Below the pieces are notes generated by a model. The model made no database searches. It saw only the letters and a program-made list of their open reading frames with translations, and was not told the DNA's origin. A program made the position numbers and the translations under genes. From assembly GCA_048941385.1 (NCBI GenBank), contig JBHLNR010000003.1, forward strand, positions 333 through 64,332: a stretch of 64,000 bases of DNA, given 5' to 3'. How positions within the stretch are numbered: position 1 is the stretch's first letter; every line of letters begins with the position of its first letter. Positions 7,651-57,088 of the stretch are shown here, in pieces. The stretch comes from Promethearchaeota archaeon (GTDB taxonomy: Archaea; Asgardarchaeota; Lokiarchaeia; Sigyniarchaeales; SOKP01).

Positions 7651-7786
7651 AAATAAATTCTTACTAATTTATTTTCTTTTTACATTTCTTATTTTTACTT
7701 TAAATTAAAATAGCTTTTAGTTTAAAGTTAAATATGAATAAAATTTCTAATTTAGTAGAAAATATTATAACTAAATCGATCTTATT

Positions 7787-8236
7787 TTGAAAGAACTCTA
7801 TGAATTAGGCATTGTTTTCAGGGGATTTGTACTCGTAAATCATACTTTTAAAGAATTGCCCGTACAAAAAGAACATGGAGTTACTAAAGATCTTAGAGGT
7901 GCGTTTATTTCAGCAATAAACGCTTTCACTGAAACTGCATTTAATAAAAGTTCATTAGAATATTTAGAATCTGGAAATATCTTATTTATTTTTAAGATTG
8001 CTTTAATACAATCTGAGGATAACAATGTCAAAGAATCATTAATTCTATACGGATTAGTAGATAAATCAAAAAAGAAATCAGATAAACTTGTAAATAAATT
8101 CTTCGAAAGAGTGAATCCTATTCTACAATTATTTATTCAAAAATTCAATGGAGCTAATTTTTCAGAGCTGAATCAGTTTGAAGATTTTGAAGAAAAGGTA
8201 GTAGATTTCCTAACTAAAAAACCACAGGAATATTAA
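7787..8236 (+). CDS. Hypothetical protein, longin/roadblock-like alpha-beta fold (by pattern)
   Basis: 149 aa, TTG start. The order is two N-terminal beta-like hydrophobic runs (IVFRGFVLVNHTF), helix LRGAFISAINAFTETAF, strands ILFIFKIALI / LILYGLV, then C-terminal helices. The F-SAI--F helix is shared with the N-terminus of ORF 54692..55450. Confidence 0.5.
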   Translation: MKELYELGIVFRGFVLVNHTFKELPVQKEHGVTKDLRGAFISAINAFTETAFNKSSLEYLESGNILFIFKIALIQSEDNNVKESLILYGLVDKSKKKSDKLVNKFFERVNPILQLFIQKFNGANFSELNQFEDFEEKVVDFLTKKPQEY

Positions 8237-15475: not shown

Positions 15476-15540
15476 ATACCCTATTAGTTTTGATTTTCTG
15501 TAATTTTGTAGTTTTAACGAAATAAAAATGTTAGTAATTT

Positions 15541-15557
15541 AATTCTTGTTTTTAAGG
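15541..15557 (+). repeat. Direct repeat R1 (AATTCTTGTTTTTAAGG)
   Basis: Identical 17-mer recurs at 16543..16559. A near copy is at 16689..16705. Confidence 0.8.
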
Positions 15558-15635
15558 TTAATGGCGTTAATCATACTCAAATACAAATATATTTATGTGC
15601 TTTTAATAACATTTATTATTGGCGAGAATAATAAA

Positions 15636-16472
15636 ATGGTTGAGATGAGAAAAATTGTTGATAAATCACTAATGATGGTCTTTTTGTTAGAGAAATGCAA
15701 TTTTTCATGTATACATTGTGTGCGAGTAGATGAACCCATGCCTATTGGTTATAAATTATCTTTTGAGCAACTTAAGTTATGTTTATCAGATTGTCATACA
15801 TTAGAAACAATAGAATGGGTTCACTTTTCAGGTGGTGAACCAACTTTATGGACGGATGAAAAATTAGATTTGGCAGATCTTTTGATCGAGATTTCAAAAG
15901 CTGGTTTCGAACCTGGTTTTACAACAAATGGTAGTTATTTCATTGATTACATAAAATGTCATGAGCTTTTTCAAAAATATTTTAATAATGCAAATAAACG
16001 TTTACGCCTTTATATCAGCATTGACACGTTTCACCAAAATTTTAATGTTCAAAAAGGAAGAGCAAAAAGCCTTGATAATGTTATTAAATACAAATTAACT
16101 CTCCCATCCAAGAAAAGAGAATTGTTTAATATTATTGTGATAACCACAATTTCTAAAGATCCACAGTCATTGCTTCCGAAGAAAATGATTAAGCATTATC
16201 AATCCTTAGGATTAGAATTCCTTTTTCTTCCATTAAGAGCTGTAGGTAAAGGAAAATCATTGAGTTATTTATGTCCTAATCTTGAAAGTAATAAACAAGA
16301 AGAACTGGGAGCCTATTATCCTTTTCATCAAAAAAAAGAAAGAAAGGAACGATTTGTAACGATAAATCTTGTTCTTATTGATAATGGCTACTATTTTCAT
16401 AATCCTTGGCGTAAAATTGGGAGCCTTGGACACATACCATTAAGAGTTATTGATATGTATAAATTGAATTAA
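15636..16472 (+). CDS. Small radical SAM protein
   Basis: CNFSCIHC (CxxxCxxC) about 20 aa from the ATG at 15636, and the FSGGEPTLW SAM-binding motif. The TTG-started N-terminal extension in the ORF track (from 15546) covers repeat R1 and is probably not translated. Confidence 0.75.
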   Translation: MVEMRKIVDKSLMMVFLLEKCNFSCIHCVRVDEPMPIGYKLSFEQLKLCLSDCHTLETIEWVHFSGGEPTLWTDEKLDLADLLIEISKAGFEPGFTTNGSYFIDYIKCHELFQKYFNNANKRLRLYISIDTFHQNFNVQKGRAKSLDNVIKYKLTLPSKKRELFNIIVITTISKDPQSLLPKKMIKHYQSLGLEFLFLPLRAVGKGKSLSYLCPNLESNKQEELGAYYPFHQKKERKERFVTINLVLIDNGYYFHNPWRKIGSLGHIPLRVIDMYKLN

Positions 16473-16542
16473 TACTCTTAGATTTTTTATGTATAAATAA
16501 CCTACTAGTTTAGTTTTACTATTGTTCGATACACTCTTAATA

Positions 16543-16559
16543 AATTCTTGTTTTTAAGG
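16543..16559 (+). repeat. Direct repeat R2 (AATTCTTGTTTTTAAGG)
   Basis: Identical to R1. The preceding ~55 nt also resemble the spacer after the lpd stop (AAATACCCTATTAGTTT vs AAATAACCTACTAGTTT). Confidence 0.8.
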
Positions 16560-16568
16560 ATGTTTTAA

Positions 16569-16657
16569 ACTGTCCATGATGTTGCGGAGACAATTCTAGT
16601 AGTGAAGCATCGATTGGTAAAGCTATTCATAAAAAAGGTAGACCTATTCACGATTGA
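16569..16657 (+). pseudogene. Decayed duplicate of the 3' end of lpd
   Basis: 16569..16596 is 28/28 identical to lpd 15353..15380. After a ~30-nt deletion and frameshift it continues as AGTGAAGCATCGATTGGTAAAGCTATTCATAAAAAAGGTAGACCTATTCACGATTGA (SEASIGKAIHKKGRPIHD*). The lpd end reads SEAVIGKAIHKKGRPIHE*. Confidence 0.85.
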
Positions 16658-16705: not shown

Positions 16706-16796
16706 TATGTTTTTAAATATCTTATTTTACTAATTATTTGCCTTCCTTAATCATAATTTTATGGTTTGTTATTGATCAATAATAAGTTTGCATAGG

Positions 16797-18146
16797 ATGC
16801 TTCGTCAAGTATATGTACTTAAAGAAAATGATGTAATTTATAAACGAGCATATGGAAATGCTCTGAGTAATTCTGAAGTTGAAGATCTGAGTTTTAGGAT
16901 TTTAAAAGAGGTAAAAACAAGCCTTGGGAGAACTTCAGGACATTTTGATTTCATTAAGTATAGAATAGCATATGAAGTTGAGGTTGAAATCAACTTAATT
17001 TTTCTATTTATTACAGGATTGATGGATGATTATTATCGATTGATCAAGCCCCAATTGTTTAACTTTAAGGACCAATTTATAAATCGTCTAGGAGATGATT
17101 TAAAAGGAAAAGACATAAGGAATATAAGTTTTACTGGTATTAACGTAATGCTCGACGAGATGCATAGAAATTTAAAACCAAAAATAGCTGTTGTAGGATT
17201 TGCTGGAGTGGGTAAAACTACTATAAAAAAATTAATAAAAATGGATGAGATTCCTCTTCAACATGTTCCCACTATTACAGGTGAAATCGCTACAATAAAA
17301 ATAGGGAGGCTTTTATTTCGTTTATTTGATTTTGCGGGTCAAGAACAATTTAAATTCCTTTGGAAGGGATTTATAAAGGAAAGTGACGCTGTACTTGTTG
17401 TTACTGATTCTACAATGAAAAATGTTGAAAAAAGCAAATTTTTTATAAACCTCATTAATGAAGAAGTTCCTCATGCACGAGCTGCTTTTATAGCTAATAA
17501 ACAAGACTTAAACAAAGCGATGAGTCCAGAAGAAATAGAAAAAATAACGGGTTTAAAAACATATCCCATGGTTGCAAACCATAAAGAAAACCGGAACAAA
17601 ATGATTCGAGTTATCGCAGATGTGCTGGATATGAGTACCGAAAATTCACCATTACTAGAAGAATTGTTTAATACTACAGATTTATCAGCCGATACCTTAG
17701 TTATACCTGAAGACACTAAAATTATTGAAGAAACACCAATAATAGGAGAAAATGAAGTTCCTCTAAATACCATTCGGTTAGAAAAGATAGAAACTACTAG
17801 CAATGCGAGAGATAAGATTGATCAAGTTATATCAAGTAATATTGAAATTAAACCGATTATGTTTAAAAGTGGGCTTTCAAGCGACGATATCAAATCTCCA
17901 ATTGAAAATGCTTTAGTCCCATCCGATCTATTTGAAGAACTTATTAATGGAAACTCATATACACTAAATGAAAAGCTGAGTATTATTTTTACAGTAATCA
18001 ATTGTGCTTTTCTTACTAAAACTAATCCTGAGGAATACCCCAAATTTGGAAGTTTTTTGAGAAATTTTAAGATGGATGTTTTTAATTCTAAACAATTAAG
18101 GACTATCCGAAAATTCTATTCAAAAATCATTAAACAAGTGACATAG
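16797..18146 (+). CDS. Longin-like N-terminal domain fused to an Arf/Rab-like small GTPase with a C-terminal extension
   Basis: GTPase motifs G1 GFAGVGKTT, G3 DFAGQE, G4 NKQD. The preceding ~125 aa (VYVLKENDVIYKRAYG...IAYEVEVEINLIFLFITG) have a longin/roadblock-like strand-helix pattern. ATG at 16797 is preferred over TTG at 16788. Confidence 0.7.
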   Translation: MLRQVYVLKENDVIYKRAYGNALSNSEVEDLSFRILKEVKTSLGRTSGHFDFIKYRIAYEVEVEINLIFLFITGLMDDYYRLIKPQLFNFKDQFINRLGDDLKGKDIRNISFTGINVMLDEMHRNLKPKIAVVGFAGVGKTTIKKLIKMDEIPLQHVPTITGEIATIKIGRLLFRLFDFAGQEQFKFLWKGFIKESDAVLVVTDSTMKNVEKSKFFINLINEEVPHARAAFIANKQDLNKAMSPEEIEKITGLKTYPMVANHKENRNKMIRVIADVLDMSTENSPLLEELFNTTDLSADTLVIPEDTKIIEETPIIGENEVPLNTIRLEKIETTSNARDKIDQVISSNIEIKPIMFKSGLSSDDIKSPIENALVPSDLFEELINGNSYTLNEKLSIIFTVINCAFLTKTNPEEYPKFGSFLRNFKMDVFNSKQLRTIRKFYSKIIKQVT

Positions 18147-20923: not shown

Positions 20924-21028
20924 AGGCCCGTGGCCTAGTCTGGATAGGGCGGCAGCCTCCTAAGCTGAAGATCATAGGCTTCTGTAACCTAAGATCAGAA
21001 ATCGGGGGTTCAATTCCCCTCGGGCCTG
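20924..21028 (+). tRNA. tRNA-Arg (anticodon CCU) with a ~30-nt intervening sequence 3' of the anticodon stem
   Basis: Acceptor AGGCCCG (20924-30) / CGGGCCT (21021-27). D arm GCCT-AGTCTGGATA-GGGC. Anticodon arm GCAGC-CTCCTAA-GCTG with CCT at 20959-61. T arm GGGGG-TTCAATT-CCCCT. Discriminator G; no encoded CCA. About 30 extra nt (approx. 20968-20998) lie between the anticodon stem and the variable loop. Confidence 0.85.
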
Positions 21029-21172: not shown

Positions 21173-22912
21173 GTGAAAAATTTGCCAAAAAGAATATTAA
21201 GAGTTAATATGACTAATTTAGAAGCTAAATTTGAAGATTTACCAGCAGATTACGCAGGACTAGGCGGTCGTGGTATGACATCAACTATTGTTTCCAAAGA
21301 AGTTCCTCCCACCTGTCATCCTTTAGGAGTTCATAATAAGATTGTATTCGCTCCAGGGATTGTAACAGGCACGAGAGCCCCAACATCTGGTCGTATATCA
21401 GTTGGAGGAAAGTCCCCCTTAACTGGAGGAATTAAAGAAGCTAATGCGGGAACTCCTTTTGCACAGAAACTAGCAAGATTACGGATCGGAGCTCTAATAG
21501 TAGAAGGAAAACATAAAGGAGACGATTACTTTCTTCTTCAAGTTACTAATGACAGTGCTGAATTGGTAAATGCTAATAAATGGGCAGGTAAAGGTCTCTA
21601 TAGTACATATAAAGAACTCTTTAAAGAATTTGGGGATAAAGTTGGGATTTGTGGTGTTGGAATAGCCGCAGAGGTTCTTGGAGTAATGTCTGGAGTTTGT
21701 TTCAATGATCCTGAAGGGTTGCCTAGTAGATATTCTGGAAGAGGTGGGCTTGGTGCTGTAATGGCATCTAAAGGATTAAAATTTATAATCGTAGATGAAA
21801 CTGATGCTCCAGGTGTTGAAATTGTGAATGATGAATTATTTTCTCAGGGGATTAAAAAATTGAGAGAAGCACTCGGGGAACATCCTGTTACTCAACCAAA
21901 AGGAGGGCTTAATTCATATGGGACAAGTGTCTTGGTAAATATTATAAATGAAGCAGGTGGATTACCCCAAAGAAACTTTTCTAGTGGTCAGGATGAACAA
22001 GCGGAAAAAATTTCTGGTGAAGTTAAAGCTGAGGAAATCCAAAAAAGAGGTGGCGTCCGACCTCACTTCTGTAGTCCTGGGTGCATAATACAATGCTCAG
22101 AGGTATGGACTAAACCTGGCGGTAAAGATCCAGTTGGAGTTTTAGAATATGAATCAGTATGGGCTTTAGGGGCAAATTGTGGAATTTATAACTTAGACGA
22201 TGTTGGTGAGTTAAATCGAGCATGTAATGATTTAGGAGTTGATACTATTGAAGCAGGTGATACACTTGCAGTTGCTATGGAAGGAGGATTAGCGAAATTT
22301 GGAGATGGTAAAGGTGCTCTAAAACTCATGGATGAAATTCGTAAGAAAACACCAACAGGTCGAATTTTAGCTCAGGGAACTGAGATTACCGGTAAAGTTT
22401 TGGGTGTTACCAGAATTCCCACAGTTAAGGGTCAAGGATTACCTGCTTATGACCCACGTGCTATCAAGGGTATAGGAGTCACTTATGCTACTACTCCTAT
22501 GGGAGCAGACCATACAGCGGGTTATGCTATCGCTCCTGAAATTATGGGCGTCGGTGGTCAAGCAGATCCTCGGGATCCTAAGAAAGCAGAGATCTCTAGA
22601 AACCTACAGATAGCTACAGCGGCATTGGATGCAACAGGTTATTGTCTATTCGTTGCATTTGCAATTTTAGATATTCCTTCAGGATTAGAAGGTATAGTTG
22701 AATCTTTGAACGGAGTATTAGGAGTAAACCTTACTGTGGATGACGTCCCTGTGATAGGAAAACAAATCTTAGATGCTGAATTAGAATTCAATAAAAAAGC
22801 GGGATTTACTGCAATTGATGATAGACTACCTGAGTTCTTTATGGAAGAAAAGCTTGAGCCCTCAGGAGAAGTTTTTAATGTAACAGACGATGAATTAGAC
22901 AGTGTGTTTTAG
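21173..22912 (+). CDS. Aldehyde:ferredoxin oxidoreductase family protein (second paralog)
   Basis: 579 aa. N-terminal RILRVNMTNLEAKFEDLP, plus EYESVWALGANCG, DTIEAG and GADHTAGY motifs of the AOR family. GTG start at 21173 (the conserved RILRVN lies upstream of the first ATG). Confidence 0.85.
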   Translation: MKNLPKRILRVNMTNLEAKFEDLPADYAGLGGRGMTSTIVSKEVPPTCHPLGVHNKIVFAPGIVTGTRAPTSGRISVGGKSPLTGGIKEANAGTPFAQKLARLRIGALIVEGKHKGDDYFLLQVTNDSAELVNANKWAGKGLYSTYKELFKEFGDKVGICGVGIAAEVLGVMSGVCFNDPEGLPSRYSGRGGLGAVMASKGLKFIIVDETDAPGVEIVNDELFSQGIKKLREALGEHPVTQPKGGLNSYGTSVLVNIINEAGGLPQRNFSSGQDEQAEKISGEVKAEEIQKRGGVRPHFCSPGCIIQCSEVWTKPGGKDPVGVLEYESVWALGANCGIYNLDDVGELNRACNDLGVDTIEAGDTLAVAMEGGLAKFGDGKGALKLMDEIRKKTPTGRILAQGTEITGKVLGVTRIPTVKGQGLPAYDPRAIKGIGVTYATTPMGADHTAGYAIAPEIMGVGGQADPRDPKKAEISRNLQIATAALDATGYCLFVAFAILDIPSGLEGIVESLNGVLGVNLTVDDVPVIGKQILDAELEFNKKAGFTAIDDRLPEFFMEEKLEPSGEVFNVTDDELDSVF

Positions 22913-22931: not shown

Positions 22932-23216
22932 ATGCCAATTCGAATAAAATTTTTCGGGGATTTAAGGAAAAAAGTACAACCAGATATCATGGGAAGTCTC
23001 CCATTAAAGTTTACTATTGAACCTAATGATATCGAAAGAGTTTCTGATATTTTGGAAAGATATAATATTAAGGAGCATGAAATTATCCACATTTTCGTGA
23101 ATGGAAGATATTCGGGACTTACAAAGAAAGTAGAAGATGGAGATATCATAGCAATATTCCCAATTAACATGTCTGTTTTATATAAATGGTATTTTAATAG
23201 AGAGGAAGATGAATAA
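22932..23216 (+). CDS. MoaD/ThiS-like beta-grasp protein lacking a C-terminal Gly-Gly (has a 17-aa tail)
   Basis: 94 aa. IRIKFFGDLRK...VNGRY...DGDIIAIFP matches the MoaD/ThiS pattern, but the sequence continues INMSVLYKWYFNREEDE instead of ending in GG. Starts 20 nt after the AOR stop. Confidence 0.6.
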   Translation: MPIRIKFFGDLRKKVQPDIMGSLPLKFTIEPNDIERVSDILERYNIKEHEIIHIFVNGRYSGLTKKVEDGDIIAIFPINMSVLYKWYFNREEDE

Positions 23217-23454
23217 CAATAATATTGAGGTTACAGTTAAATTTTTTGCTATGTTACGAGAATATGGCCCAGCAAAAGAGACAATTGTAATTCCTAAGGA
23301 CAGTAAAGTTGAACTATTGTTTAAGAAATATCAGATCCCCAGGGAAGTATGGCAGACAGTCATTATCGTAAATGGCAGGCCACATAATAATCTTGAAACA
23401 GTACTTAAAAATGGAGATATAATATCGATTTTCCCACCTATAGGTGGTGGTTGA
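23209..23454 (+). CDS. MoaD/ThiS/SAMP-like beta-grasp protein ending in Gly-Gly-Gly
   Basis: 81 aa. VKFFAMLREY...VNGRP...NGDIISIFPPIGGG*. Overlaps the preceding gene by 8 nt. Confidence 0.7.
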   Translation: MNNNNIEVTVKFFAMLREYGPAKETIVIPKDSKVELLFKKYQIPREVWQTVIIVNGRPHNNLETVLKNGDIISIFPPIGGG

Positions 23455-27181: not shown

Positions 27182-27763
27182 TTAAATATTATTTTTTTCC
27201 ATCCATTCATCTTTAAAAATAGCAAACTGATGCATATCAACATATTCACCATCTACAAAAAGTTCCTCTCTCAACACAGTTTCTTCTTTGAATCCAAGCT
27301 TTTCTGCTACGCGAAGTGATCTTCTGTTTGGATTATAAACACCTGCACAGATCTTATGGAAATTTAGCTCAGTAAATCCATATTTTATTAATAAATTCGC
27401 AGCCTCACCAACTAAGCCTTTTCCCCAATCCTCTGGTTCTCCGATAACTGCAGAGATGAATGCGTTCCTGTTTATCCAATTAATCAAAAAGAACCCTATT
27501 GTACCTATTGGGCGTTTATCTGCTTTATGATAAATTACAAAAAATATGACCTCTCTTGTACCTCGTTCTGACGGAGGTTCAAACCAGCTTTTTATCTGCT
27601 CCGGTATCATAGGCATGTCGTGTCGAGCTAAATGTCTTACTCTTGGATCATTATTCCACTTACAATATAAATTAACCCATTTAGAACTTTGAGCAACTAG
27701 ATCAATCCTCTCTCCCTCAATAAAAGGGAAAACACCATCTTCTTTGTCTTCTTTATCAATCAA
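27182..27763 (-). CDS. GNAT N-acetyltransferase, RimJ/RimL-like (paralog 1 of 4)
   Basis: 193 aa. Pattern FPFIEGE-IDL...W-NDPRV...IG-IGF--INW-NRNA...GEPE-WGKG...A---L--YGF-ELN-HKI. Confidence 0.8.
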   Translation of the reverse strand: MIDKEDKEDGVFPFIEGERIDLVAQSSKWVNLYCKWNNDPRVRHLARHDMPMIPEQIKSWFEPPSERGTREVIFFVIYHKADKRPIGTIGFFLINWINRNAFISAVIGEPEDWGKGLVGEAANLLIKYGFTELNFHKICAGVYNPNRRSLRVAEKLGFKEETVLREELFVDGEYVDMHQFAIFKDEWMEKNNI

Positions 27764-28350
27764 TCAATATCACCTTTTATCTTCTCTTTTTCAGTTTTCA
27801 TCCACTCTTTTCTAAGAATTGCAAACTTATGAATATCAAAATACTTTCCGTCGATGTAGATATGTTCCTTTTGGACACCCTCCTTTTTCAACCCTAATTT
27901 TGCAGCAACTCTAAGAGATCGTTGATTTGGATTATGAATAGAGGCATTGATTTTGTGGAAATTCAATTCAGTAAATCCATATTTTATCATTAATTCTGCA
28001 GCTTCTACAGCTATACCTTTTCCCCAATATTCTGGTTCTCCTATCTCTGTAAATATATTGGCATTTCGATTCACCCAATTAATGCGATTAAAACCAATAC
28101 TTCCAATAGGGCGTTGATCCCTTTTATGAAATATTATAAATATAATGAAATCTCTTATTCCTCTTGGGGGATTTTCGAACCATTTATTTACCTCCTCAGG
28201 GATAATAGGAAATTCATGCCTTGCATATTGACGAACTCTGGGATCGTTCTGCCATTTCGCATATAAATCTGCCCATTTAGAATTTTGAGCAACCAAATCT
28301 ATTGTTTCTCCTTGAATAAAAGGAAAAACAGATTCCTCTTTATCATTCAT
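27760..28350 (-). CDS. GNAT N-acetyltransferase, RimJ/RimL-like (paralog 2 of 4)
   Basis: 196 aa, roughly 60% identical by eye to paralog 1. 4-nt overlap with it. Confidence 0.8.
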   Translation of the reverse strand: MNDKEESVFPFIQGETIDLVAQNSKWADLYAKWQNDPRVRQYARHEFPIIPEEVNKWFENPPRGIRDFIIFIIFHKRDQRPIGSIGFNRINWVNRNANIFTEIGEPEYWGKGIAVEAAELMIKYGFTELNFHKINASIHNPNQRSLRVAAKLGLKKEGVQKEHIYIDGKYFDIHKFAILRKEWMKTEKEKIKGDID

Positions 28351-28365
28351 TCTCTACCACCACAT

Positions 28366-28959
28366 TTATTGATTATTTTTCTTTCTATTAATCCAATCTT
28401 CCTTTAATAAGCGGAAGGTTTTATTATCTAGATACTTTCCATCCACATAGATTGACTCCTTTTCAATACCCTCTAAAGTAAATCCAATCTTTTCAGCAAC
28501 AGACCATGAAGCAATATTATCAATTATTACACCCCCATGAAGCTTATTCAGATTTAATTCTCTGAAAGCATAATTAACTAATAATACAGTCGCTTCTGTA
28601 GCAATATTCTTTCCCCAATAATCTTTCTCTCCAATCCAAATATATGCATTCGCCCATCCATTTACCCAATCTATATGTCCTAATCCTATTCTTCCAATAG
28701 GCTTTTTATCTTTTTTATGCCATATTTCAAAAGAAACATGTTCCTTAAACTCAATTTGTGGGGTATCATATCTTTCTTTTTGTTCATCTAGGGTTCTTGG
28801 AATTACATTTCGGGAATATTTTCTAACAATGGGATCATTTTTCCATTTAGCATATAATTCTGCATGCTTTGAGTTTAATGCGCAAAGATCCAAGTTCTCT
28901 CCTTGAATAAATGGAAAGTGATCAATTATCTGTTTTTTATCATTATCTTGTTCTTCCAT
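28366..28959 (-). CDS. GNAT N-acetyltransferase, RimJ/RimL-like (paralog 3 of 4)
   Basis: 197 aa. Same architecture but more divergent (HIDWVNGWANAYIWIGEKDYWGKNIATEA). Confidence 0.8.
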   Translation of the reverse strand: MEEQDNDKKQIIDHFPFIQGENLDLCALNSKHAELYAKWKNDPIVRKYSRNVIPRTLDEQKERYDTPQIEFKEHVSFEIWHKKDKKPIGRIGLGHIDWVNGWANAYIWIGEKDYWGKNIATEATVLLVNYAFRELNLNKLHGGVIIDNIASWSVAEKIGFTLEGIEKESIYVDGKYLDNKTFRLLKEDWINRKKNNQ

Positions 28960-28961
28960 TA

Positions 28962-29537
28962 TTACTGATCACCTTGAAGACTTAGCCATTCTCTTTTTAA
29001 AATTGAATATTTTAGAGCATCTATATACTTTCCATCAATATATATCTCTTTTTTTAAGGTTAATTCATGCTTAAAACCATTTTTTTCAACTACTTTAACT
29101 GAGGATACATTTGGAGTAAAAACTGTCGCATTTATTTTATTAAAGTTCAGTTCATTAAATCCGTATTCTACAACTAGTTTTGCAGCTTCTGTAGCAAATC
29201 CTTTACCCCAGTATTCGGGTTCTCCAATTAAATAGAACAGAAATGCATTTCTATCAAGCCAACGAATATCAATAAAACCCGCATATCCTATGGGTTTTTC
29301 ATCTGCTTTATGCCATATTTCAAGAAAGATCTCAGATTTCATAGTTTCTTGTTTAGGTTCAAACCATTTTTTTACCTCTTCTATAATTTGAGGGAATTCA
29401 TATCTTGCATACTTTCGAATTCTTGGATTATTCATCCACCTAGTATACAGATTAATATGCTCTGTATTAGGGGGACAGAGATTAATATCTTTTCCCTCAA
29501 TAAATGGAATACTTTTCTTACCTTTGTCTTCTTCCAT
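28962..29537 (-). CDS. GNAT N-acetyltransferase, RimJ/RimL-like (paralog 4 of 4)
   Basis: 191 aa. Same architecture (IDIRWLDRNAFLFYLIGEPEYWGKGFATEA). 2 nt from paralog 3. Confidence 0.8.
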   Translation of the reverse strand: MEEDKGKKSIPFIEGKDINLCPPNTEHINLYTRWMNNPRIRKYARYEFPQIIEEVKKWFEPKQETMKSEIFLEIWHKADEKPIGYAGFIDIRWLDRNAFLFYLIGEPEYWGKGFATEAAKLVVEYGFNELNFNKINATVFTPNVSSVKVVEKNGFKHELTLKKEIYIDGKYIDALKYSILKREWLSLQGDQ

Positions 29538-32632: not shown

Positions 32633-34192
32633 CTAATACTTGTCGTCAATGCTAGAAAGCATTGATTTCAACTGATCAAATATATCAATCCGAAAATCAT
32701 CCCCTATTCTGAAAAAAAGTAAGTCAACTGCTTTTTTATCAAGATAATCATCAACGTTTAATTCTCCAATAATCTGTGACCAACTAGTACTTTCCAATGC
32801 TCTAATTCCAATCAAAATAACACCATTATCTTTAATATTATTGATTATTTTTATTATAATCTCCTTCCATTCAGTTTCAACGCGCTCCTTATCTCTGGCA
32901 TCAAAAATGCAAAACACACCATCAGAACTAGAAATATCATCAGCGGCAGAATATAAATGTTGTTTTAGTATCAATCCATTTGAATATTGGAAGACTTGTT
33001 CGTCATCATAATCTCTTACCGTTGCACTTTCTCCTAATTGTTTAATTTTAACAAATGTTTGTAGTCCTGGACTCCACGTATTATTCTTTGTAATAAATGA
33101 AAGAGTAAGAACTATTTTTTTATTTAAGATGGATAATATTTTTTCATATAGCATGTCACTCCTTCTACTATCTTCAATTTCTTTACTTTTCATTACGTAG
33201 TGATATGAGATCAAGTTAAAAGCATCCTCTATATTCTCTCCCGTCAAAGCACTTGTTTCAATATAAGATAATTTGGTTTTTTCATTTTCTGATATTTTAT
33301 TTGCTAATTTCACACCTTCTTGATAAAATATTTGACGTTCATCGCTTAGATCTGACTTATTACCAACCAAAACAATAGGCAGTTCCTCATCAGTAGTGAA
33401 CTCTTTTAATTCTTCATACCATTCTGTTATTTTTTCAAATGATTCCCGTTTAGTCAAATCGAAAACAATGAAAGCCGCCTGTGTTCCAGTGTAATATGAC
33501 TTCCTAAAACGACGAAAATATTTCTGAGCCCCCAGGTCATATAAGGTGACCCCAATTTCATTTCCAAAAAATTCAAATGTATGTGTCAAAACATTCAGTC
33601 CAATTGTTGCTCTATAATCGTGCGAAAACTTTTTTTCAACAAATCTACGGATAATTGACGTTTTTCCTACCTCATGATTTCCAATAATTACGAATTTAAA
33701 ACGGTATTCTCCCCTTGTCGTCATCTCCATTTGATAAAGTTGATTTTTTAACCTTTGAACATTCTCGGCTTCGTATTCAAAATTAGGGACTGAAACTTGA
33801 ATTAGATCGCCTTCTTCAGCAGTTAAAATCTGAGCCGTTTTTTCAGCTAAAAATAAACCATAAGGTGATAGCTTCTCGATTGAGGCCATGCTATCTAAAA
33901 CTAGGCTTAATATTCGTTCCTCATCAACTGATATAAACAAAAGGCGATGTTCTTCTGTGTCAAAACTTGCATTTCCGAATTTCTTGAAAGCGAATTCATT
34001 ACGCATACGCTGTAAAACAGGATTGACAATAGAAGTTAAAACAGATACTAATTCAATATCAACATCTTTTCTCTTTTCACCTGCAATGATTAATCCTTCA
34101 CTATCTGAGACAATTACAGCTTCAACTTCTTGATTTATCTTGAGAAATTTAGTAAAGAAATCAATAAATAACTTGTTTTTACGTACAACCAA
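32633..34192 (-). CDS. Roadblock/LC7 domain - Ras-superfamily GTPase - C-terminal degenerate domain fusion (paralog A)
   Basis: 519 aa. Roadblock-like N-terminus (VEAVIVSDSEGLIIAGEKR...VSVLTSIVNP...LLFISVD). GTPase G1 GNHEVGKTS, G3 DLGAQ, G4 GNKSDL, G5 ETSALTG. About 170-aa C-terminal domain. Confidence 0.8.
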   Translation of the reverse strand: MVVRKNKLFIDFFTKFLKINQEVEAVIVSDSEGLIIAGEKRKDVDIELVSVLTSIVNPVLQRMRNEFAFKKFGNASFDTEEHRLLFISVDEERILSLVLDSMASIEKLSPYGLFLAEKTAQILTAEEGDLIQVSVPNFEYEAENVQRLKNQLYQMEMTTRGEYRFKFVIIGNHEVGKTSIIRRFVEKKFSHDYRATIGLNVLTHTFEFFGNEIGVTLYDLGAQKYFRRFRKSYYTGTQAAFIVFDLTKRESFEKITEWYEELKEFTTDEELPIVLVGNKSDLSDERQIFYQEGVKLANKISENEKTKLSYIETSALTGENIEDAFNLISYHYVMKSKEIEDSRRSDMLYEKILSILNKKIVLTLSFITKNNTWSPGLQTFVKIKQLGESATVRDYDDEQVFQYSNGLILKQHLYSAADDISSSDGVFCIFDARDKERVETEWKEIIIKIINNIKDNGVILIGIRALESTSWSQIIGELNVDDYLDKKAVDLLFFRIGDDFRIDIFDQLKSMLSSIDDKY

Positions 34193-34267: not shown

Positions 34268-35854
34268 TTAAAGATATTTAATTGTGTTAAGCATTACTTT
34301 AAGTTGATCATAAATTTCCAACCTATATTCTATTCCAATTTTGAAAAACAACAAAGATATCATTTTTTGTTCCAGTAACTCATTTACATCAAATTCTTCC
34401 ATTATTCGGGACCAGTTTGTTTTTTCACTTACTCTTATGCCTATTAAAACTACTTTATTCTCCTCTAGATCGTTGATAATCTTTACTACAACATCCTTCC
34501 ACTCAGGCTCTATATGATCTTCATAACGGGCGTCAAAGATGCAAAACACACCATCAGATTTGGATACATCAAAATTTTTATAAAGGAAATTTTTAATCAT
34601 TACACCATTAGAAAACTTGTATATTTTCTCATTATACTCATCTTTTATCTTCTCTAGTTTGTACTCACAATTAATATCTGAGAGAATTTGTAATCCTGGA
34701 CTCCAGAATTCGTTTTCTGATATAACAGTTAATGTTAACAGGTTTTCTAAATTTACGCCTTGTTTCATTCTTTTTTCTAATATTAAGTTTTGCTCCTCTA
34801 ATAGATCGAGTTTTAATCTATCCTCTTCTTCTTGCTTACTTTGAGATATATAATGATATGCTATTAATGTAAAGGCGTCTTCTACGTTTTCTCCAGTTAA
34901 CGCACTGGTTTCGATGTAGGAAGCTTTAATATTCAAGTTTTTAGAAAGCTCGCTAACTAAATCCACACCCTCCTGGTAAGTAATTGCTCTTTGATCCCGT
35001 AAATCTAATTTGTTTCCGATGATAATGAGAGGAATTTTTCTTTGATCAATAAATTTTTCTAATTCCCCATACCAGTTCATTACATTATCAAATGATTGTT
35101 TTTTAGTTATCTCAAATACAAGAAACGCAGCCTGTGCACCTAGGTAATATGTTTGACGGAATCTTGCAAAGAATGATTGAGCACCTATATCCCACAGACT
35201 ATAGGCAACTTTATTCCCATAAAACTCTATATTATGACTTAAAATATTTAATCCTATTGTTGCGCGATAATCATGGGAAAACTTATTCTCCACAAATCTT
35301 CTCACTAAGGATGTTTTCCCCACTTCATGATCTCCAATAATAACAAACTTGAATCGATAAGTACCCCCTTGGTCTAATCTCATTTGATATATTTGATTTT
35401 TAACCCTTTCCTCGGTAACAGAAGCATCAGTTTCATATTCAAAATGAGGAATCGTCATCTGTATGTTGTCACCTTCCTCTGCATTAAGTATCTGAACCGC
35501 TTTTTCTGCTAGGAGATATGCATAAGGCGAAGCTCTATCAACAGAGGCCATATTATTTAGAACAACACTTAACGTTCTTTTTTCATCCAGGGAGATAAAT
35601 AAAAGGCGATAAAATTCTGTATCAAAACTGGCAGTTCCAAACTCTCTGAAAGCGAATTCATCACGGATCCTTTCTAAAATAGGATTGATAATTGAAGTTA
35701 AAACTGATACTATTTCCATATCAATATCTTTTCTTTTTTCACCAGCTATGACTAATCCCATCTGATCACTTACAATGACAGCTTCTACATCCTTATTAAT
35801 TTCCAAGAAAAGGTTAAATATTTTTGTAAAAAGTTCATTTCTATTTATTGACAA
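34268..35854 (-). CDS. Roadblock/LC7 domain - Ras-superfamily GTPase - C-terminal degenerate domain fusion (paralog B)
   Basis: 528 aa, collinear with paralog A (roughly 55-60% identity by eye). G1 GDHEVGKTS, G3 DIGAQ, G4 GNKLDL, G5 ETSALTG. Confidence 0.8.
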   Translation of the reverse strand: MSINRNELFTKIFNLFLEINKDVEAVIVSDQMGLVIAGEKRKDIDMEIVSVLTSIINPILERIRDEFAFREFGTASFDTEFYRLLFISLDEKRTLSVVLNNMASVDRASPYAYLLAEKAVQILNAEEGDNIQMTIPHFEYETDASVTEERVKNQIYQMRLDQGGTYRFKFVIIGDHEVGKTSLVRRFVENKFSHDYRATIGLNILSHNIEFYGNKVAYSLWDIGAQSFFARFRQTYYLGAQAAFLVFEITKKQSFDNVMNWYGELEKFIDQRKIPLIIIGNKLDLRDQRAITYQEGVDLVSELSKNLNIKASYIETSALTGENVEDAFTLIAYHYISQSKQEEEDRLKLDLLEEQNLILEKRMKQGVNLENLLTLTVISENEFWSPGLQILSDINCEYKLEKIKDEYNEKIYKFSNGVMIKNFLYKNFDVSKSDGVFCIFDARYEDHIEPEWKDVVVKIINDLEENKVVLIGIRVSEKTNWSRIMEEFDVNELLEQKMISLLFFKIGIEYRLEIYDQLKVMLNTIKYL

Positions 35855-36048
35855 TAATTATTCTACCAACGGTCTATTTTTTAGGTGAAAATTGCATTCT
35901 TAACAATATAGTAACATAAGATCTATATAACTATTTTTCAAAGTTTTGCTAAAAAGATACTATTAAAAGTCTTTAGTCTATAATTTTAATATATAAAGCC
36001 ATTTGGATACTAGGGATAATTAAAAAAAAGGCTCACAACTGAATCGTT

Positions 36049-36633
36049 ATGCCTTCCTGCATAGTTTGTCATTTAGAAGTAGATGAGGTAAGCCATTCTT
36101 ATTTTGAATGCGATAATGGTCATCCGATTCATTTTCATTGTTTAGCAGATTGGTTATTACACTCAAAAAACTGTCCTTTATGTAGTGATACTTATCCAGA
36201 GAGTGTTTTAGCCAAATTTAAGGATTTTCTGGATGAGAAAAATAAAGAGCAACAAGATGCAAAGAATAAAGAGTTGTATGAAGAATCTAAAAAAAAGATG
36301 GAAAAGGTTGCTGATAGAATAATCTTCCTTAAATATATTGAGGTTATTGAAACTTTAATTGACGATAAAAAGTATTCTGAAGCCATAGATTTACTCATGG
36401 AATCTTACGACGATAGAACTTCTGATGAAAAAAACTTAAGAATTCTTTTTTTATTAGGAATGGTTAATTACTTAAGGGGGCGATATGATTTGGCAATCAA
36501 TTTCTTATTTAAATTAGTTAAACTAAAATTTGATTACCCCGATGGGTTTCTTTTTCTTGGAAAATCTTATGAAGCACTCGGGATGAAAGATAAAGCAGAT
36601 TGGGCATATCAAAGAATAAAAAATAAAGATTAA
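36049..36633 (+). CDS. RING-H2 zinc finger protein with C-terminal TPR repeats (putative E3 ligase-like)
   Basis: C4-x2-C7-x13-C21-x3-H25-x2-H28-x2-C31-x10-C42-x2-C45, with IHFHCLADWLLHSKNCPLC. This is the full RING-H2 spacing, including the Trp after C6. The C-terminus has TPR-like helices (AIDLLMESY..., LGMVNYLRGRYDLAINFLFKLV, LGKSYEALGMKDKADWAYQR). Confidence 0.8.
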   Translation: MPSCIVCHLEVDEVSHSYFECDNGHPIHFHCLADWLLHSKNCPLCSDTYPESVLAKFKDFLDEKNKEQQDAKNKELYEESKKKMEKVADRIIFLKYIEVIETLIDDKKYSEAIDLLMESYDDRTSDEKNLRILFLLGMVNYLRGRYDLAINFLFKLVKLKFDYPDGFLFLGKSYEALGMKDKADWAYQRIKNKD

Positions 36634-37463
36634 TCTTCTTTTACTGATACTAAATCAAGATCTATATTAACATAAAAATCTTGAGAATGATTAGTAGGAC
36701 CATAACCTTTCCCTATATTCAATTTTTCAGCCTTAATAATTGCTGCTGTCAAATATGCCTTTGCAATATGAACCGCTTTTTTAATTTTATGATCTTTAGC
36801 TAATTCTGCCGCAATAGCAGAAGCGAAAGTGCATCCTGTCCCATGAGTATTTTTAGATTCAATACGAGCTGCATGGAATTCAGTGAATATTTTACCATCA
36901 TAAAGAATATCAATTGCATTACCCTTATCAGGAAGATGTCCTCCCTTAATAACGACATTTTTTGCTCCTAAAGAATGGATTTTTTTTGCTGCCTCACGAG
37001 CGTCTATAAGATTTTTTATTTCCATGTCTGTAATTACTTGAGCCTCATAATGGTTTGGGGTTATCACACATGCCAACGGGATTAATTCCAATATAAGAGC
37101 TTTACTTGCCTTAGGTTTTAATAGATGATCTCCACCTTTAGCAACCATTACTGGATCGATAACTAAAAACTCAACACTATATTTACGAGCACGATCAGCA
37201 ACAATTTTAATAATTTCCTCATTTGCAAGCATTCCGGTTTTCCAAGCATCAGCTCCTATATCAGACATAACTGAATCAATTTGTTTTCCGACAAAATTAG
37301 GATCAATCTCGTATATTCCTTGAACTCCAGTAGTGTTTTGAGCAGTTAGAGCAGTTATAGCACTCATTCCAAATACTCCCAGAGCAGAGAAAGTTTTTAA
37401 ATCTGCCTGAATCCCTGCACCTCCACCAGAATCAGATCCAGCAATAGTTAATACTTTTTTCAT
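36630..37463 (-). CDS. thiD: Hydroxymethylpyrimidine/phosphomethylpyrimidine kinase
   Basis: MKKVLTIAGSDSGGGAGIQADLKTF...TALTAQNT...GTGCTFASAIAA are ThiD signatures. Start taken at the internal ATG 37463; the 30-aa upstream extension is not conserved-looking. Confidence 0.9.
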   Translation of the reverse strand: MKKVLTIAGSDSGGGAGIQADLKTFSALGVFGMSAITALTAQNTTGVQGIYEIDPNFVGKQIDSVMSDIGADAWKTGMLANEEIIKIVADRARKYSVEFLVIDPVMVAKGGDHLLKPKASKALILELIPLACVITPNHYEAQVITDMEIKNLIDAREAAKKIHSLGAKNVVIKGGHLPDKGNAIDILYDGKIFTEFHAARIESKNTHGTGCTFASAIAAELAKDHKIKKAVHIAKAYLTAAIIKAEKLNIGKGYGPTNHSQDFYVNIDLDLVSVKED

Positions 37464-37553
37464 TGTCCTTAGTATTTTATACCTTAATTTTATAAAAAAT
37501 TTCTTATAATGTGATTGAAATAAAGGAAATTCTGAATAAAAAAAAGATTTCAT

Positions 37554-38873
37554 CTATAAAGTAGAATTTTTTCTGCTTTCAAGAGTGTCTTTCAACAGTT
37601 TTATCGCGCAAAATTCACCACACATGCTACACACTTCATCATCACCTTCAGCACATCCATTACGGTAATGGATCTCTCTTGCTAATTCAGGATCAATTGC
37701 TTGATTAATCATACCTTCCCAGTTAAGTTCTTTTCTGGCGATATCCATTTTATAATCCCAGTGTGAAACTCGTTTTCCATAGCGTGCGATGTTAACGGCG
37801 TGGGCAGCAATTTTAGAGGAAATGACACCTCTCTTAACATCATCCTTTGTAGGTAAGCCCAAATGTTCAGAAGGAGTAACATAACATAAATAATCTGCTC
37901 CAGCTAAACCAGCAAGTACTCCTCCAATAGCACCTACAATATCATCATATCCTGGGGCAATATCTGTAACAAGTGGGCCTAATACATAAAATGGTGCTTC
38001 ATCGCATAGTGATTTCTGCATTTTAATATTACGTTCAATTTCATTTGCAGGAATATGTCCTGGTCCTTCAACCATGACTTGGACATCTGCAGCCCAAGTT
38101 CGCTTTACTAATTTAGAAATTTCGAGTAATTCTTGAACCTGGGCAAAATCTGTAGAATCAAATATACTTCCTGGTCGCATTCCATCTCCAAGAGAAAGAG
38201 TGAAGTCATATTCTTTAGCCATCTCGAGCAGATAGTCATATCTTCTGTTAAACGGGTTCTCTTCATTATTTTCTAAAATCCATGATGCTAGGAATGTTCC
38301 ACCTCGAGAAACAACACCCATTAATCTTGGATGTTCAATCAGAAATTTAACTATTTCTTGTGTTACTCCTACATGAATAGTAAAGAAATCAACCCCTTCC
38401 TTAGCCTGTTCTTCCACTACATTAAACATGTCATCTTCATCCATGTGGATAATAGCTCCTTTTTTCTCAAGAGCCCTTAGTGCCGTCTGATAAATTGGAA
38501 CCGTTCCTATCGGTATTTTGACATTATCGAGAATTTTTTTACGAATTGTAATTACATCTGTTTCGGTAATACCAGTGCTTAAATCCATTACGGTATCTGC
38601 CCCAAATCGAGCAGCAATTTTTGCTTTTTCCACTTCTTCATCGATATTGCAATGGGTTTTTGATGAACCGACATTCGCATTTATTTTAACTAATAACCCT
38701 CTTCCAATACCTATAGGTGTCTCTAAATCTCGTCGATTTGATTTAGGAATTACAATTCTGCCACTTTCTATGCCTTGCCTTATGAATTCTACATCTACTT
38801 GTTCATTTTTTGCGACAATCTCCATTTCTTTTGTAATCCGCCCATTCCTCGCAGTTCTCATCAAGCTTGACAA
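37554..38873 (-). CDS. thiC: Phosphomethylpyrimidine synthase
   Basis: 439 aa. VNANVGSS, DTVMDLSTG, VSRGG, VMVEGPGH and the C-terminal cluster motif CSMCGEFCAIK. Confidence 0.9.
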   Translation of the reverse strand: MSSLMRTARNGRITKEMEIVAKNEQVDVEFIRQGIESGRIVIPKSNRRDLETPIGIGRGLLVKINANVGSSKTHCNIDEEVEKAKIAARFGADTVMDLSTGITETDVITIRKKILDNVKIPIGTVPIYQTALRALEKKGAIIHMDEDDMFNVVEEQAKEGVDFFTIHVGVTQEIVKFLIEHPRLMGVVSRGGTFLASWILENNEENPFNRRYDYLLEMAKEYDFTLSLGDGMRPGSIFDSTDFAQVQELLEISKLVKRTWAADVQVMVEGPGHIPANEIERNIKMQKSLCDEAPFYVLGPLVTDIAPGYDDIVGAIGGVLAGLAGADYLCYVTPSEHLGLPTKDDVKRGVISSKIAAHAVNIARYGKRVSHWDYKMDIARKELNWEGMINQAIDPELAREIHYRNGCAEGDDEVCSMCGEFCAIKLLKDTLESRKNSTL

Positions 38874-41521: not shown

Positions 41522-42007
41522 TTATTCAAAACCTATTTTTAATTGTTTTAGAAGTTTAATTAATGATGTTGTTAATTGATAATCTTTAAGTTGATTGAAA
41601 GGAACAAATTTGGCTTCAAGTGCATCGTCTTGAGCAGTAGGAGGATCATTTGTTCTACCATCAATTTGTTCTACGAAAAAATTAAGTAATACATAGTGAT
41701 ATTCGATTTTTCCATTCTCATCATACATAATTTTATCAATGATCCCTGCTAATTTTGTCACTTTCACCTTAAAACCTGTCTCTTCATAAGCTTCTCTCTC
41801 CGCTGCTCTTTCCACTTCTTCTCCCAAATCTAAATGTCCTCCAGGAATAGACCAATAACCCGCGTCAGGATCATATTTTCTTTTAACTAACAATAGATGA
41901 TTATCCCTAACAAGGAGGACTCCAACTCCTACATGTGGACGTATGGGATATTTTCTTGTATCAAAAGCAGAAAGTTGTTCTCTATCAACCATAAATTTAC
42001 ATTTCAA
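41522..42007 (-). CDS. NUDIX hydrolase
   Basis: Nudix box GGHLDLGEEVERAAEREAYEETG. The start may be the downstream ATG at 41992. Confidence 0.85.
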   Translation of the reverse strand: MKCKFMVDREQLSAFDTRKYPIRPHVGVGVLLVRDNHLLLVKRKYDPDAGYWSIPGGHLDLGEEVERAAEREAYEETGFKVKVTKLAGIIDKIMYDENGKIEYHYVLLNFFVEQIDGRTNDPPTAQDDALEAKFVPFNQLKDYQLTTSLIKLLKQLKIGFE

Positions 42008-54150: not shown

Positions 54151-54681
54151 TTGCGCAAACAAAAAAAATCAACAAAAAGAAATGAAAATCCAGAAAATAT
54201 TGGTTCTGAAACCATTATAGAAAAAATTAAAAGGAACTTACCATGGATCTTTGGGAAAAAACTCAGAAAGCCGAAGATTAACTTCCCAAAAATCAAATAT
54301 CGGAGATTTTCTTTACCAACACCATCAAGATCATTAATCATTATCATAATTTTTTCTATTTTATTTCTACTCCAAACAGGAATCGTATATTTAATTGTTA
54401 GAGATCCCCCCTCAGCCGGTAGAGATGAATATGGAAATCCAATTTTTGTATGGGAAAGAGATATTCACGAGGCATTTGTAATTGAAAGCATAGTTGCCTC
54501 GATTCTTATTATTTTATTTTCTTTTGGATTTTTATTAGTGTTTCAGGCATCCAAATATATATATGATAAAAAAATAGCAGATTATTACTTATTTCTAGGA
54601 ATAATAATAATTCTATTAACCTTTGCTCTACTCCAATTCATGCTTTATGTTAAAGCACCAAGACTTATTGAAAAACCATAA
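54151..54681 (+). CDS. OST3/OST6 (TUSC3/MagT1)-like membrane protein, TM domain only
   Basis: 176 aa. GIVYLIVRDPPSAGRDEYGNPIFVWERDIHEAFVIESIVASILII aligns by eye with the eukaryotic OST3/TUSC3 core ([42 protein letters not shown]), followed by two more TM helices as in OST3. TTG start; no thioredoxin domain. Confidence 0.55.
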   Translation: MRKQKKSTKRNENPENIGSETIIEKIKRNLPWIFGKKLRKPKINFPKIKYRRFSLPTPSRSLIIIIIFSILFLLQTGIVYLIVRDPPSAGRDEYGNPIFVWERDIHEAFVIESIVASILIILFSFGFLLVFQASKYIYDKKIADYYLFLGIIIILLTFALLQFMLYVKAPRLIEKP

Positions 54682-56683: not shown

Positions 56684-57088
56684 ATGTCTGACAACGAATT
56701 AGAAAAAATACGACAAAGAAAAGCAGAAATGTTGATGAAACTCCAAGCTATGCCCAAAGCTATAATAAACATAAAAAGTGAAGGGGAACTATATAAATTA
56801 TCTGAAGAATTTAATGGTAAGATTATTATCATTGATTTTTGGGCCGCCTGGTGTTCACCCTGTAAGATGTTTGCTCCAATTTTCGAAAGAGTTCAACAAG
56901 AATATTCTGGAGACTTCATATTTGCTAAAATCAATGTTGATGAAAATCCTATGGTGGCACAGCGGTATGGTATTGCATCTATACCTACAACTTTATTCAT
57001 TAAGGGCGGTCAACCTTTACGAAAAATAGTTGGAGCAGTAAACTATGCTACATTAAAGCAAATGCTAGATAAGTTAAGATCTGATTAA
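56684..57088 (+). CDS. trxA: Thioredoxin
   Basis: 134 aa. IIDFWAAWCSPCKMFAPIF active site (CSPC variant of CGPC) and IPTTLFIKGG. Confidence 0.85.
   Translation: MSDNELEKIRQRKAEMLMKLQAMPKAIINIKSEGELYKLSEEFNGKIIIIDFWAAWCSPCKMFAPIFERVQQEYSGDFIFAKINVDENPMVAQRYGIASIPTTLFIKGGQPLRKIVGAVNYATLKQMLDKLRSD

Follow-up and report, generated by a model that had tools for sequence, protein, structure and literature searches.

A RING-H2 finger joined to a TPR module in Loki-lineage Asgard archaea: a putative E3-ligase-like adaptor with conserved thiamine neighbours

Complete ubiquitin machinery has been reported in Asgard archaea generally, and working cascades of activating enzyme (E1), conjugating enzyme (E2) and RING-type ligase (E3) have been assembled in vitro from Caldiarchaeum (PMC5654768) and from a Helarchaeon of another Asgard lineage (bioRxiv 10.1101/2023.07.25.550441). 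Here we describe a gene from a 64,000-nucleotide stretch (the window) of contig JBHLNR010000003.1, assigned to a Promethearchaeota archaeon (assembly GCA_048941385.1, positions 333 to 64,332). Its 194-residue product, termed RING-TPR below, combines an N-terminal RING-H2 finger, a long charged helix and three tetratricopeptide repeats (TPRs). Judged from its sequence and structural model, RING-TPR is probably a soluble, single-chain adaptor of the RING-type E3-ligase kind, conserved in the Loki lineage of the Asgard archaea.

Several described systems resemble parts of this protein. The eukaryotic RING-H2 E3s EL5/ATL, Arkadia/RNF165 (ARK2C), RNF24 and RNF38 have the same C3H2C3 ligand order and spacing class, and share with it the motifs H-x2-C-[LIV]-x2-W-L and C-P-[LIV]-C. 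In contrast to these ligases, RING-TPR carries the RING at its extreme N-terminus (M1-P2-S3-C4) rather than C-terminally, displays Ser or Asn instead of Arg after the last ligand, is fused to a helix and TPRs, and is archaeal. The archaeal ligases srfp of Caldiarchaeum subterraneum (PMC5654768) and the Helarchaeial RING E3 (bioRxiv 10.1101/2023.07.25.550441) are likewise of the RING-H2 class, with the Ile and Trp of the predicted E2 interface and an Asgard or related host. Both are small and reside inside operons with ubiquitin, E1 and E2 (and ESCRT) genes, whereas RING-TPR is not found beside ubiquitin, E1 or E2 genes in the loci examined; moreover, it adds a TPR module suited to client binding and lacks the Arg or Lys that is needed in srfp.

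A further likeness, to CHIP/STUB1, is one of architecture only and not of whole-protein homology. Both proteins combine a three-TPR client module, a long helical segment and a RING-fold domain for E2 docking, and the STUB1 TPR appears at rank 49 of the Foldseek matches to the whole RING-TPR model. However, the order of the parts is reversed, a zinc RING-H2 takes the place of the zinc-free U-box, and we found no evidence in RING-TPR for an EEVD carboxylate clamp or for dimerisation. The eukaryotic proteins rapsyn, TTC3 and LONRF also contain both TPRs and a RING-H2, in a different order, at a different size and with extra domains. RING E3s of Asgard archaea are already known and the domain has already been flagged publicly, while the genomic association of RING-TPR with thiamine genes is undescribed; in the literature that we searched, no description of an Asgard RING-helix-TPR family or of its gene context was found.

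The ligands of the RING can be read from the translation as C4-x2-C7-x13-C21-x3-H25-x2-H28-x2-C31-x10-C42-x2-C45, in the context IHFHCLADWLLHSKNCPLC (also given as HPIHFHCLADWLLHSKNCPLC). Their C3H2C3 order fits the RING-H2 rule C-x2-C-x(9-39)-C-x(1-3)-H-x(2-3)-H-x2-C-x(4-48)-C-x2-C, and spacing and context are exactly those claimed in an initial annotation of this stretch, made from the letters alone. The same spacing (13,3,2,10) is present in 118 of 120 close homologues, and in a 28-sequence alignment extending down to 27% identity no N-terminal column is invariant except those of the eight ligands and of P43. Since spacing and ligands are conserved among relatives, the Cys/His pattern is not a product of chance. 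One close homologue (P0065, 193 aa) displays Gly at ligand 6 (KYGLAEW); either its sequence contains an error or this copy is degenerate.

Profile searches offer a second view of the domain. In Pfam, zf-RING_2 (PF13639) passes marginally, scoring 27.8 bits where the gathering threshold is 27.3 (E 3.1e-6), and a precomputed PF13639 match is present in most homologues. Weaker matches comprise zf-rbx1, zf-C3HC4_2, zf-RING_4 and zf-ANAPC11, and the PHD, FYVE and B-box families are absent from the Pfam matches of the protein. When a profile built from residues 1-58 of 36 family members was searched against the PDB, all 31 matches at E<=0.01 were RING proteins, led by the RING-H2 E3s EL5 (2e-5), ARK2C/RNF165, RNF24 and Arkadia. 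The initial annotation had proposed an Rbx1/ATL type of RING-H2 E3; the RING-H2 identity and the ATL part hold, while the Rbx1 part does not, as zf-rbx1 scores 22.6 against a cut-off of 31.

The structural model is in line with the profiles. The full-length AlphaFold2 (AF2) model reaches a mean predicted local distance difference test (pLDDT) score of 92.1 and displays a RING beta-beta-alpha core formed by strands 18-20 and 26-28 and helix 29-36. A Foldseek search with the whole model gave TPR matches only; the RING fold is recovered with a RING-only model (pLDDT 85.6, with the beta-beta-alpha core present), whose top 50 matches in the PDB are almost all RING or U-box domains, several of them in complex with UbcH5. 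The best of these is RNF165 with UbcH5b~Ub (template-modelling score normalised to the target, TM(target), 0.76; root-mean-square deviation, rmsd, 1.6 Å over 46 columns; E 2e-3), the modest E-values being in keeping with a domain of ~50 residues. These results support a RING-H2 domain of the EL5/ATL/Arkadia type, and we regard the domain identities of the protein, RING-H2 and TPR alike, as practically certain.

The family to which RING-TPR belongs appears confined, among named sequences, to Asgard archaea. A homology search with the protein yields 263 homologues at E<=1e-3, and the best 120 of these 263 are 186-205 aa long. The named homologues all derive from Asgard metagenome-assembled genomes (MAGs), classified as Promethearchaeota or carrying the submitter labels Hod-, Hermod-, Thor- and Odinarchaeota; the best match, 99% identical, comes from a 'Hermodarchaeota' MAG. 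NCBI uses Promethearchaeota as the name of the Loki-lineage phylum within the Asgard kingdom. Homologues are annotated by NCBI as 'RING finger domain-containing protein' or 'hypothetical protein' and by JGI as 'TPR repeat protein'. A contig scan with one genome per GTDB species, which used the core-family alignment and reaches the core family only, recovers 66 core loci, all in MAGs of the Promethearchaeota type, and the complete genomes CP070831 and CP070805 carry the family as well.

Searching 1.84 billion representatives with a profile uncovers a wider family (23 matches at E<=1e-30, 58 at E<=1e-10) that retains the full order of RING, helix and TPRs. These proteins are usually enlarged, to 217-254 aa by a further C-terminal helix or to 445-675 aa by long stretches of low complexity or a second RING, and their named members are all Promethearchaeota MAG proteins. 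Among the top 150 matches we saw no full-length eukaryotic or bacterial counterpart, and the distant matches that cover the RING only are nearly all metagenomic proteins.

Conservation extends to the surface by which a RING of this class would contact an E2. The putative contact residues are I5/V6 in loop 1, W35 in the helix after ligand 6, and P43 and L44 in loop 2; in the PDB profile alignments I5/V6, W35 and C-P-L-C face the same motifs in EL5, RNF165, RNF24 and Arkadia. Within the core family I5, W35, P43 and L44 are invariant and position 6 is Val or Ile, which bears out the conserved Trp after ligand 6 that had been pointed out before. In the wide family W35 is still at least 90% conserved and P43 remains invariant, and the signature H-x2-C-[LI]-x2-W-L plus C-P-[LV]-C is kept throughout. 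For srfp, mutation shows that the equivalent Ile and Trp are needed (PMC5654768).

Behind the RING, the AF2 model contains a single long alpha-helix, rich in charged residues (63% E/K/D/Q/R over residues 58-92), whose C-terminal end doubles as the first TPR helix. Together with five further helices it makes up the six helices of three TPRs. The repeats are detected by phmmer (consensus TPR 8.7e-6, MamA 1.2e-5), and the whole model superimposes on CTPR3 with a TM(target) of 0.84, an rmsd of 2.5 Å and a Foldseek probability of 1.00; the Pfam TPR models all stay below their cut-offs, the best being TPR_12 with 22.6 against 30.1. The view of the C-terminal half as TPR-like is thus confirmed. On the TPR side, K158, P164, F167, K182, W185, A186 and R189 are conserved across the wide family. 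A Pfam match to MC7 (ABC-3C; E 7e-4), which sits on the charged helix and below the cut-off, was rejected as compositional.

We hypothesize that these parts cooperate as follows. Residues 1-50 would fold into a cross-brace RING-H2 with two zinc ions, one held by C4, C7, H28 and C31 (site 1) and the other by C21, H25, C42 and C45 (site 2). An E2 charged with ubiquitin or a ubiquitin-like protein (Ubl) may dock on this domain via I5/V6, W35 and P43/L44, and the charged helix of residues 58-105 would keep the RING apart from the TPR module, acting as a spacer or possibly dimerising as a coiled coil. The TPR module (residues 93-191) would grip a substrate or partner, with K158, F167, K182, W185 and R189 as its conserved residues. 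RING-TPR may in this way place an Asgard E2 that carries ubiquitin (or a Ubl) beside a TPR-bound client, which amounts to the logic of CHIP/STUB1 with the order reversed. The data show the Cys/His pattern and its conservation, the profile membership, the predicted folds and the conserved gene neighbourhood; coordination of zinc, docking of an E2, activity as a ligase and the client are inferred. Candidate clients would be proteins of the thiamine cluster, the most deeply conserved link, and in the core clade also Roadblock/Rab-like GTPases; gene context favours the former over the latter.

A number of observations weigh against this adaptor model. The Arg or Lys linchpin that many active RINGs carry after the last ligand, where it stabilises the closed E2~Ub, is missing from almost all of the family: this residue is Ser in 84, Asn in 28, Thr in 4 and Arg in 2 of 118 sequences, and it varies among the distant homologues (H, S, Y, N, A, G, R), while it is Arg in EL5 and Arkadia. 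An Arg or Lys linchpin is not universal among active RINGs, and Rbx1 has Asn; the missing residue therefore lowers the ligase claim without excluding activity. In srfp the linchpin equivalent R69 is needed, and activity is impaired in R69A (PMC5654768). The match to zf-RING_2 clears its cut-off by only 0.5 bit, with zf-rbx1 and all TPR models below theirs, and the AF2 models contain no zinc, so that the match concerns the RING fold rather than the cross-brace ligand geometry.

The genomic surroundings also count against it. There is no E1, E2 or ubiquitin gene within the 64-kb window, as had been noted at the outset; comparison of all window open reading frames (ORFs) of at least 90 aa with Pfam gave no match to the ThiF/E1, UQ_con (E2), ubiquitin, UFM1 and JAB families. 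No E1, E2 or ubiquitin gene was seen beside the RING-TPR gene at the 66 core loci either, in a scan aimed only at the window's own neighbours, and the neighbours of the gene are mostly metabolic. Because the linchpin is missing and the E2 partner is only presumed, we place the ligase-type function somewhat above even and no higher.

The window does contain two overlapping beta-grasp ORFs of ThiS/MoaD-like type beside an AOR gene, as reported previously. The first matches ThiS/Ub-Mut7C, and the second (81 aa) ends in ...PPIGGG, as in a modifier or sulfur carrier of the MoaD/SAMP type. At locus L001 (complete genome CP070831), ~7 kb downstream of the RING-TPR gene, lies a gene (15425-16585, plus strand) whose large product matches E3_UFM1_ligase, DDRGK and PCI; a counterpart of it was not found in the window.

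Thiamine genes are the most persistent neighbours of RING-TPR. In the window the gene converges with thiD, the two stop codons sharing 4 bp, and thiC and a NUDIX hydrolase gene lie beyond (the true start of thiD is probably an internal Met, for a product of ~277 aa). Neighbours at the 66 core loci were located by tblastn of the window proteins, and the counts refer to loci with enough flanking DNA. ThiD, ThiN or a ThiD-ThiN fusion (ThiDN) is encoded within 400 bp downstream of the RING-TPR gene at 49 of 52 core loci. At 37 of these 49 the thiamine gene runs in the same direction with a spacing of -16 to +69 bp, an operon-like arrangement, and at the other 12 it is convergent as in the window. 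In L024, the ThiDN ORF runs over the RING-TPR stop by 26 bp.

We additionally fetched nine loci of distant homologues, which are 27-39% identical to the window protein (Table 1). At five of the nine, with homologues of 29-39% identity, thiamine genes adjoin the homologue, and a NUDIX gene is found near the cluster in L071, L076 and L077. Upstream neighbours differ among these loci and include Lsm/Alba, a proteasome subunit (L078) and a transporter of the major facilitator superfamily (MFS). In L075, the next gene downstream of the homologue, on its strand, encodes a JAB/MPN protein whose JAMM motif (E...HSHP...S..D) is intact; together with the proteasome subunit gene of L078, which directly precedes the homologue there and is likewise co-directional with it, this protease lends weak independent support to a link with protein modification or degradation. 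A thiamine pyrophosphate (TPP) riboswitch was not detected at Rfam gathering thresholds in the window and six loci.

Upstream, RING-TPR is transcribed divergently from a tandem pair of GTPase genes across 194 nt, in agreement with the ~190 nt of the initial annotation. The adjacent 528-aa GTPase has an N-terminal region and a ~190-aa C-terminal region with no Pfam match, and is assigned to the Roadblock type only by homology to its 519-aa paralogue, to which it is ~55% identical (tblastn); the sole Roadblock-like signal is a weak N-terminal Robl_LC7 match in that paralogue, and the roadblock domain of Rag (Gtr1/RagA) GTPases is C-terminal. As judged by sequence comparison, these proteins are Roadblock/Rab-like fusions and not, as had been proposed, Rag-like. 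The best PDB match of the 528-aa protein is the Thorarchaeota Rab 7ezb (8.3e-35), followed by Rab14, Rab11 and Ypt1, and the top Pfam families of the pair are Ras, Roc and Arf, with no Gtr1_RagA listed. Fusions of Roadblock and GTPase domains have been described for Asgard archaea (PMC10933270). The ~190 C-terminal residues of both tandem GTPases match no Pfam family, and some related genomes have one copy only. An anti-phage defence context found no backing in PADLOC, which gave no match for RING-TPR or the 528-aa GTPase; the 519-aa GTPase was rejected as a defence gene, its LeoA match being sub-threshold.

The divergent arrangement is a constant feature of the core clade. All 59 core loci with sufficient upstream DNA have a Roadblock/Rab-like GTPase gene in opposite orientation at most 1.5 kb upstream, and at 57 of them the gap is 102-247 bp. 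However, the whole block of IDH, GTPases, RING, thiD, thiC, NUDIX and tyrosine phosphatase is syntenic in this clade, and the conserved pairing is therefore weak evidence of a functional link. None of the nine distant loci has a GTPase neighbour, so that the arrangement highlighted in the initial annotation is conserved within the core clade and not beyond it. The intergenic region itself, which may act as a promoter, contains a TATA-like ATTTTAATATATAA block ~55 nt upstream of the RING start codon and two copies of a ATTCTTAA-like block at ~35896 and ~35968, all conserved among 12 loci; the repeated block could be the site of a shared regulator. A scan for sigma-70 promoters and terminators found no more sites than in shuffled sequence, the model being not applicable to archaea. 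With thiamine neighbours at five of nine distant loci and GTPases at none, the thiamine link is the deeper one: it is older and more robust than the GTPase association, both being a matter of proximity.

These neighbourhoods allow other explanations of RING-TPR. The protein might belong functionally to the thiamine cluster, as a regulator, a quality-control factor or a non-catalytic TPR scaffold co-expressed with thiDN, thiN or thiW, for instance in the turnover of thiamine enzymes or transporters; if these are its clients, this explanation overlaps with that of an E3 adaptor. The tight spacing at most core loci argues for it, as does the presence of thiamine genes of differing kinds beside the distant homologues, with upstream neighbours that change from one thiamine-linked locus to another (Lsm/Alba, proteasome subunit, MFS transporter, GTPases). 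Yet all of this is proximity, and the adjacency could be synteny inherited around a stable thiamine island. In the window, thiD is convergent with the RING-TPR gene and hence not co-transcribed with it, four of the nine distant homologues have no thiamine neighbour, the riboswitch search was negative, and we know of no connection between RING proteins and thiamine in the literature. We consider a function of this kind rather unlikely. The broader proposal, in which gene clusters for thiamine biosynthesis and salvage across the Loki lineage include an E3-like RING-H2/TPR protein as an integral part transcribed along with them, and one clade further connects this protein to the GTPase pair via a bidirectional promoter, appears doubtful to us.

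Alternatively, RING-TPR might be a dedicated regulator, such as an E3, of the divergent Roadblock-GTPase pair under a common bidirectional promoter. In eukaryotes, RING E3s regulate GTPases of the Rag and Rab families, and the unbroken adjacency in the core clade and the conserved intergenic blocks would suit such a role. The adjacency is not independent evidence, though, given the synteny of the region; it is absent from all nine distant RING-helix-TPR loci, and the GTPases are Rab-like rather than Rag-like. The regulatory pairing advanced in the initial annotation was drawn from proximity, by which measure the thiamine link is conserved more deeply, and we now see this pairing as distinctly unlikely. 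The last alternative, in which the Cys/His motif represents another treble-clef zinc module (PHD, FYVE, B-box, ZZ) or a degenerate RING that binds no E2, so that the protein is a TPR scaffold, draws on the absent linchpin, the marginal zf-RING_2 score and the lack of ubiquitin machinery nearby. It fits poorly with the profile and Foldseek matches, which are all and almost all to RING-type folds, respectively, with the Pfam results for PHD, FYVE and B-box, and with the invariance of the RING-H2 signature; a non-RING fold, a possibility raised from the start, was thus not borne out. It would also be hard to see why I5, W35 and P43 should be conserved at the surface if no partner docked there, and we deem this explanation very improbable. 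The E3-ligase-like adaptor is accordingly the reading that we retain.

Table 1. Position of RING-TPR, its parts and its neighbours in the window, and genes at the loci of distant homologues
Feature	Sequence	Position	Strand	Basis or remark
Gene of the RING-H2/long helix/TPR protein	Window	36049..36633	+	ATG start, TAA stop, 194 aa; ORF list and DNA
RING-H2 domain, residues 1-50	Window	36049..36198	+	Pfam zf-RING_2 (PF13639), invariant ligands, PDB profile matches, AF2 model
Single long alpha-helix, residues 58-105	Window	36220..36363	+	DSSP on AF2 model, composition
Three TPR motifs, ~residues 93-191	Window	36325..36621	+	phmmer, Foldseek, conservation
Divergent intergenic region, AT-rich, 194 nt	Window	35855..36048	.	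Sequence, 12-locus alignment
GTPase, 528 aa, Rab-like G domain at residues 165-341	Window	34268..35854	-	Pfam Ras 1e-43; divergent neighbour
Paralogous Roadblock/Rab-like GTPase, 519 aa	Window	32633..34192	-	Pfam Ras 3.4e-43, weak Robl_LC7
thiD (hydroxymethylpyrimidine/phosphomethylpyrimidine kinase)	Window	36630..37553	-	Pfam Phos_pyr_kin 1.3e-97; convergent
thiC (radical-SAM hydroxymethylpyrimidine phosphate synthase)	Window	37554..38873	-	Pfam ThiC_Rad_SAM 7.8e-182
NUDIX hydrolase	Window	41522..42007	-	Pfam NUDIX 2e-22; accompanies the thiamine genes at core as well as distant loci
Two overlapping beta-grasp ORFs, ThiS/MoaD-like	Window	22932-23216, 23209-23454	+	After AOR, 21173-22912
ThiW	L071, L078, L079		same strand as homologue	18-60 bp downstream; then ThiDN (L071, L078; L079 ends before)
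ThiW, ThiN, ThiC, NUDIX	L077			Neighbours of homologue
Thiamine ThiB-type ABC transporter, thiamine diphosphokinase, NUDIX	L076			TIGR01254 and TIGR01378, both above cut-off
No thiamine gene at the locus	L073, L074, L080			
JAB/MPN protein, 346 aa	L075	9578-10618	+	54 bp after 507-aa RING-helix-TPR homologue (8001-9524)
Proteasome subunit gene	L078	6237-6896	+	PF00227; ~105 bp before RING-TPR homologue (7001-7714)

Elsewhere in the window, several features stand apart from RING-TPR. A tRNA match at 20924-21028 (plus strand) spans 105 nt on a model of 71 positions, and an intron is therefore probable. A member of the OST3/OST6 family, a eukaryotic-signature family, is encoded at 54151-54681 (plus strand, E 2e-10), with a thioredoxin-fold protein that gives a weak OST3_OST6 match nearby (56684-57088, plus strand). 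A 548-aa beta-propeller protein (8233-9879, minus strand) matches the BBS7 beta-propeller above the cut-off (1e-17) and the BBS2 middle region, and a 452-aa protein (16788-18146, plus strand) carries an Arf-like G domain (3e-21) after ~120 residues with no assignment. Four tandem paralogous GNAT (Acetyltransf_3) genes for proteins of 191-197 aa occupy 27182-29537 on the minus strand, where related loci have one or two copies.

Should RING-TPR turn out to be no more than a TPR scaffold whose zinc finger is structural, it would be an ordinary lineage-specific protein. If instead the thiamine-cluster explanation is true, ubiquitin-type modification, or at least RING/TPR control, would be coupled to the enzymes or transporters of vitamin B1 in a prokaryote. 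Archaeal RING E3s are few, and those studied so far are small RING proteins within ubiquitin operons. The RING-TPR family is small, soluble and well conserved (66 species-level genomes), and has a predicted client-binding module of its own in the TPRs; it is therefore a tractable candidate for the origin of substrate-selective E3s before eukaryotes. Concrete and testable hypotheses about the clients that such a protein may have come from the genes strictly conserved beside it, which are widely those of thiamine and in a single clade those of Roadblock/Rab-like GTPases.

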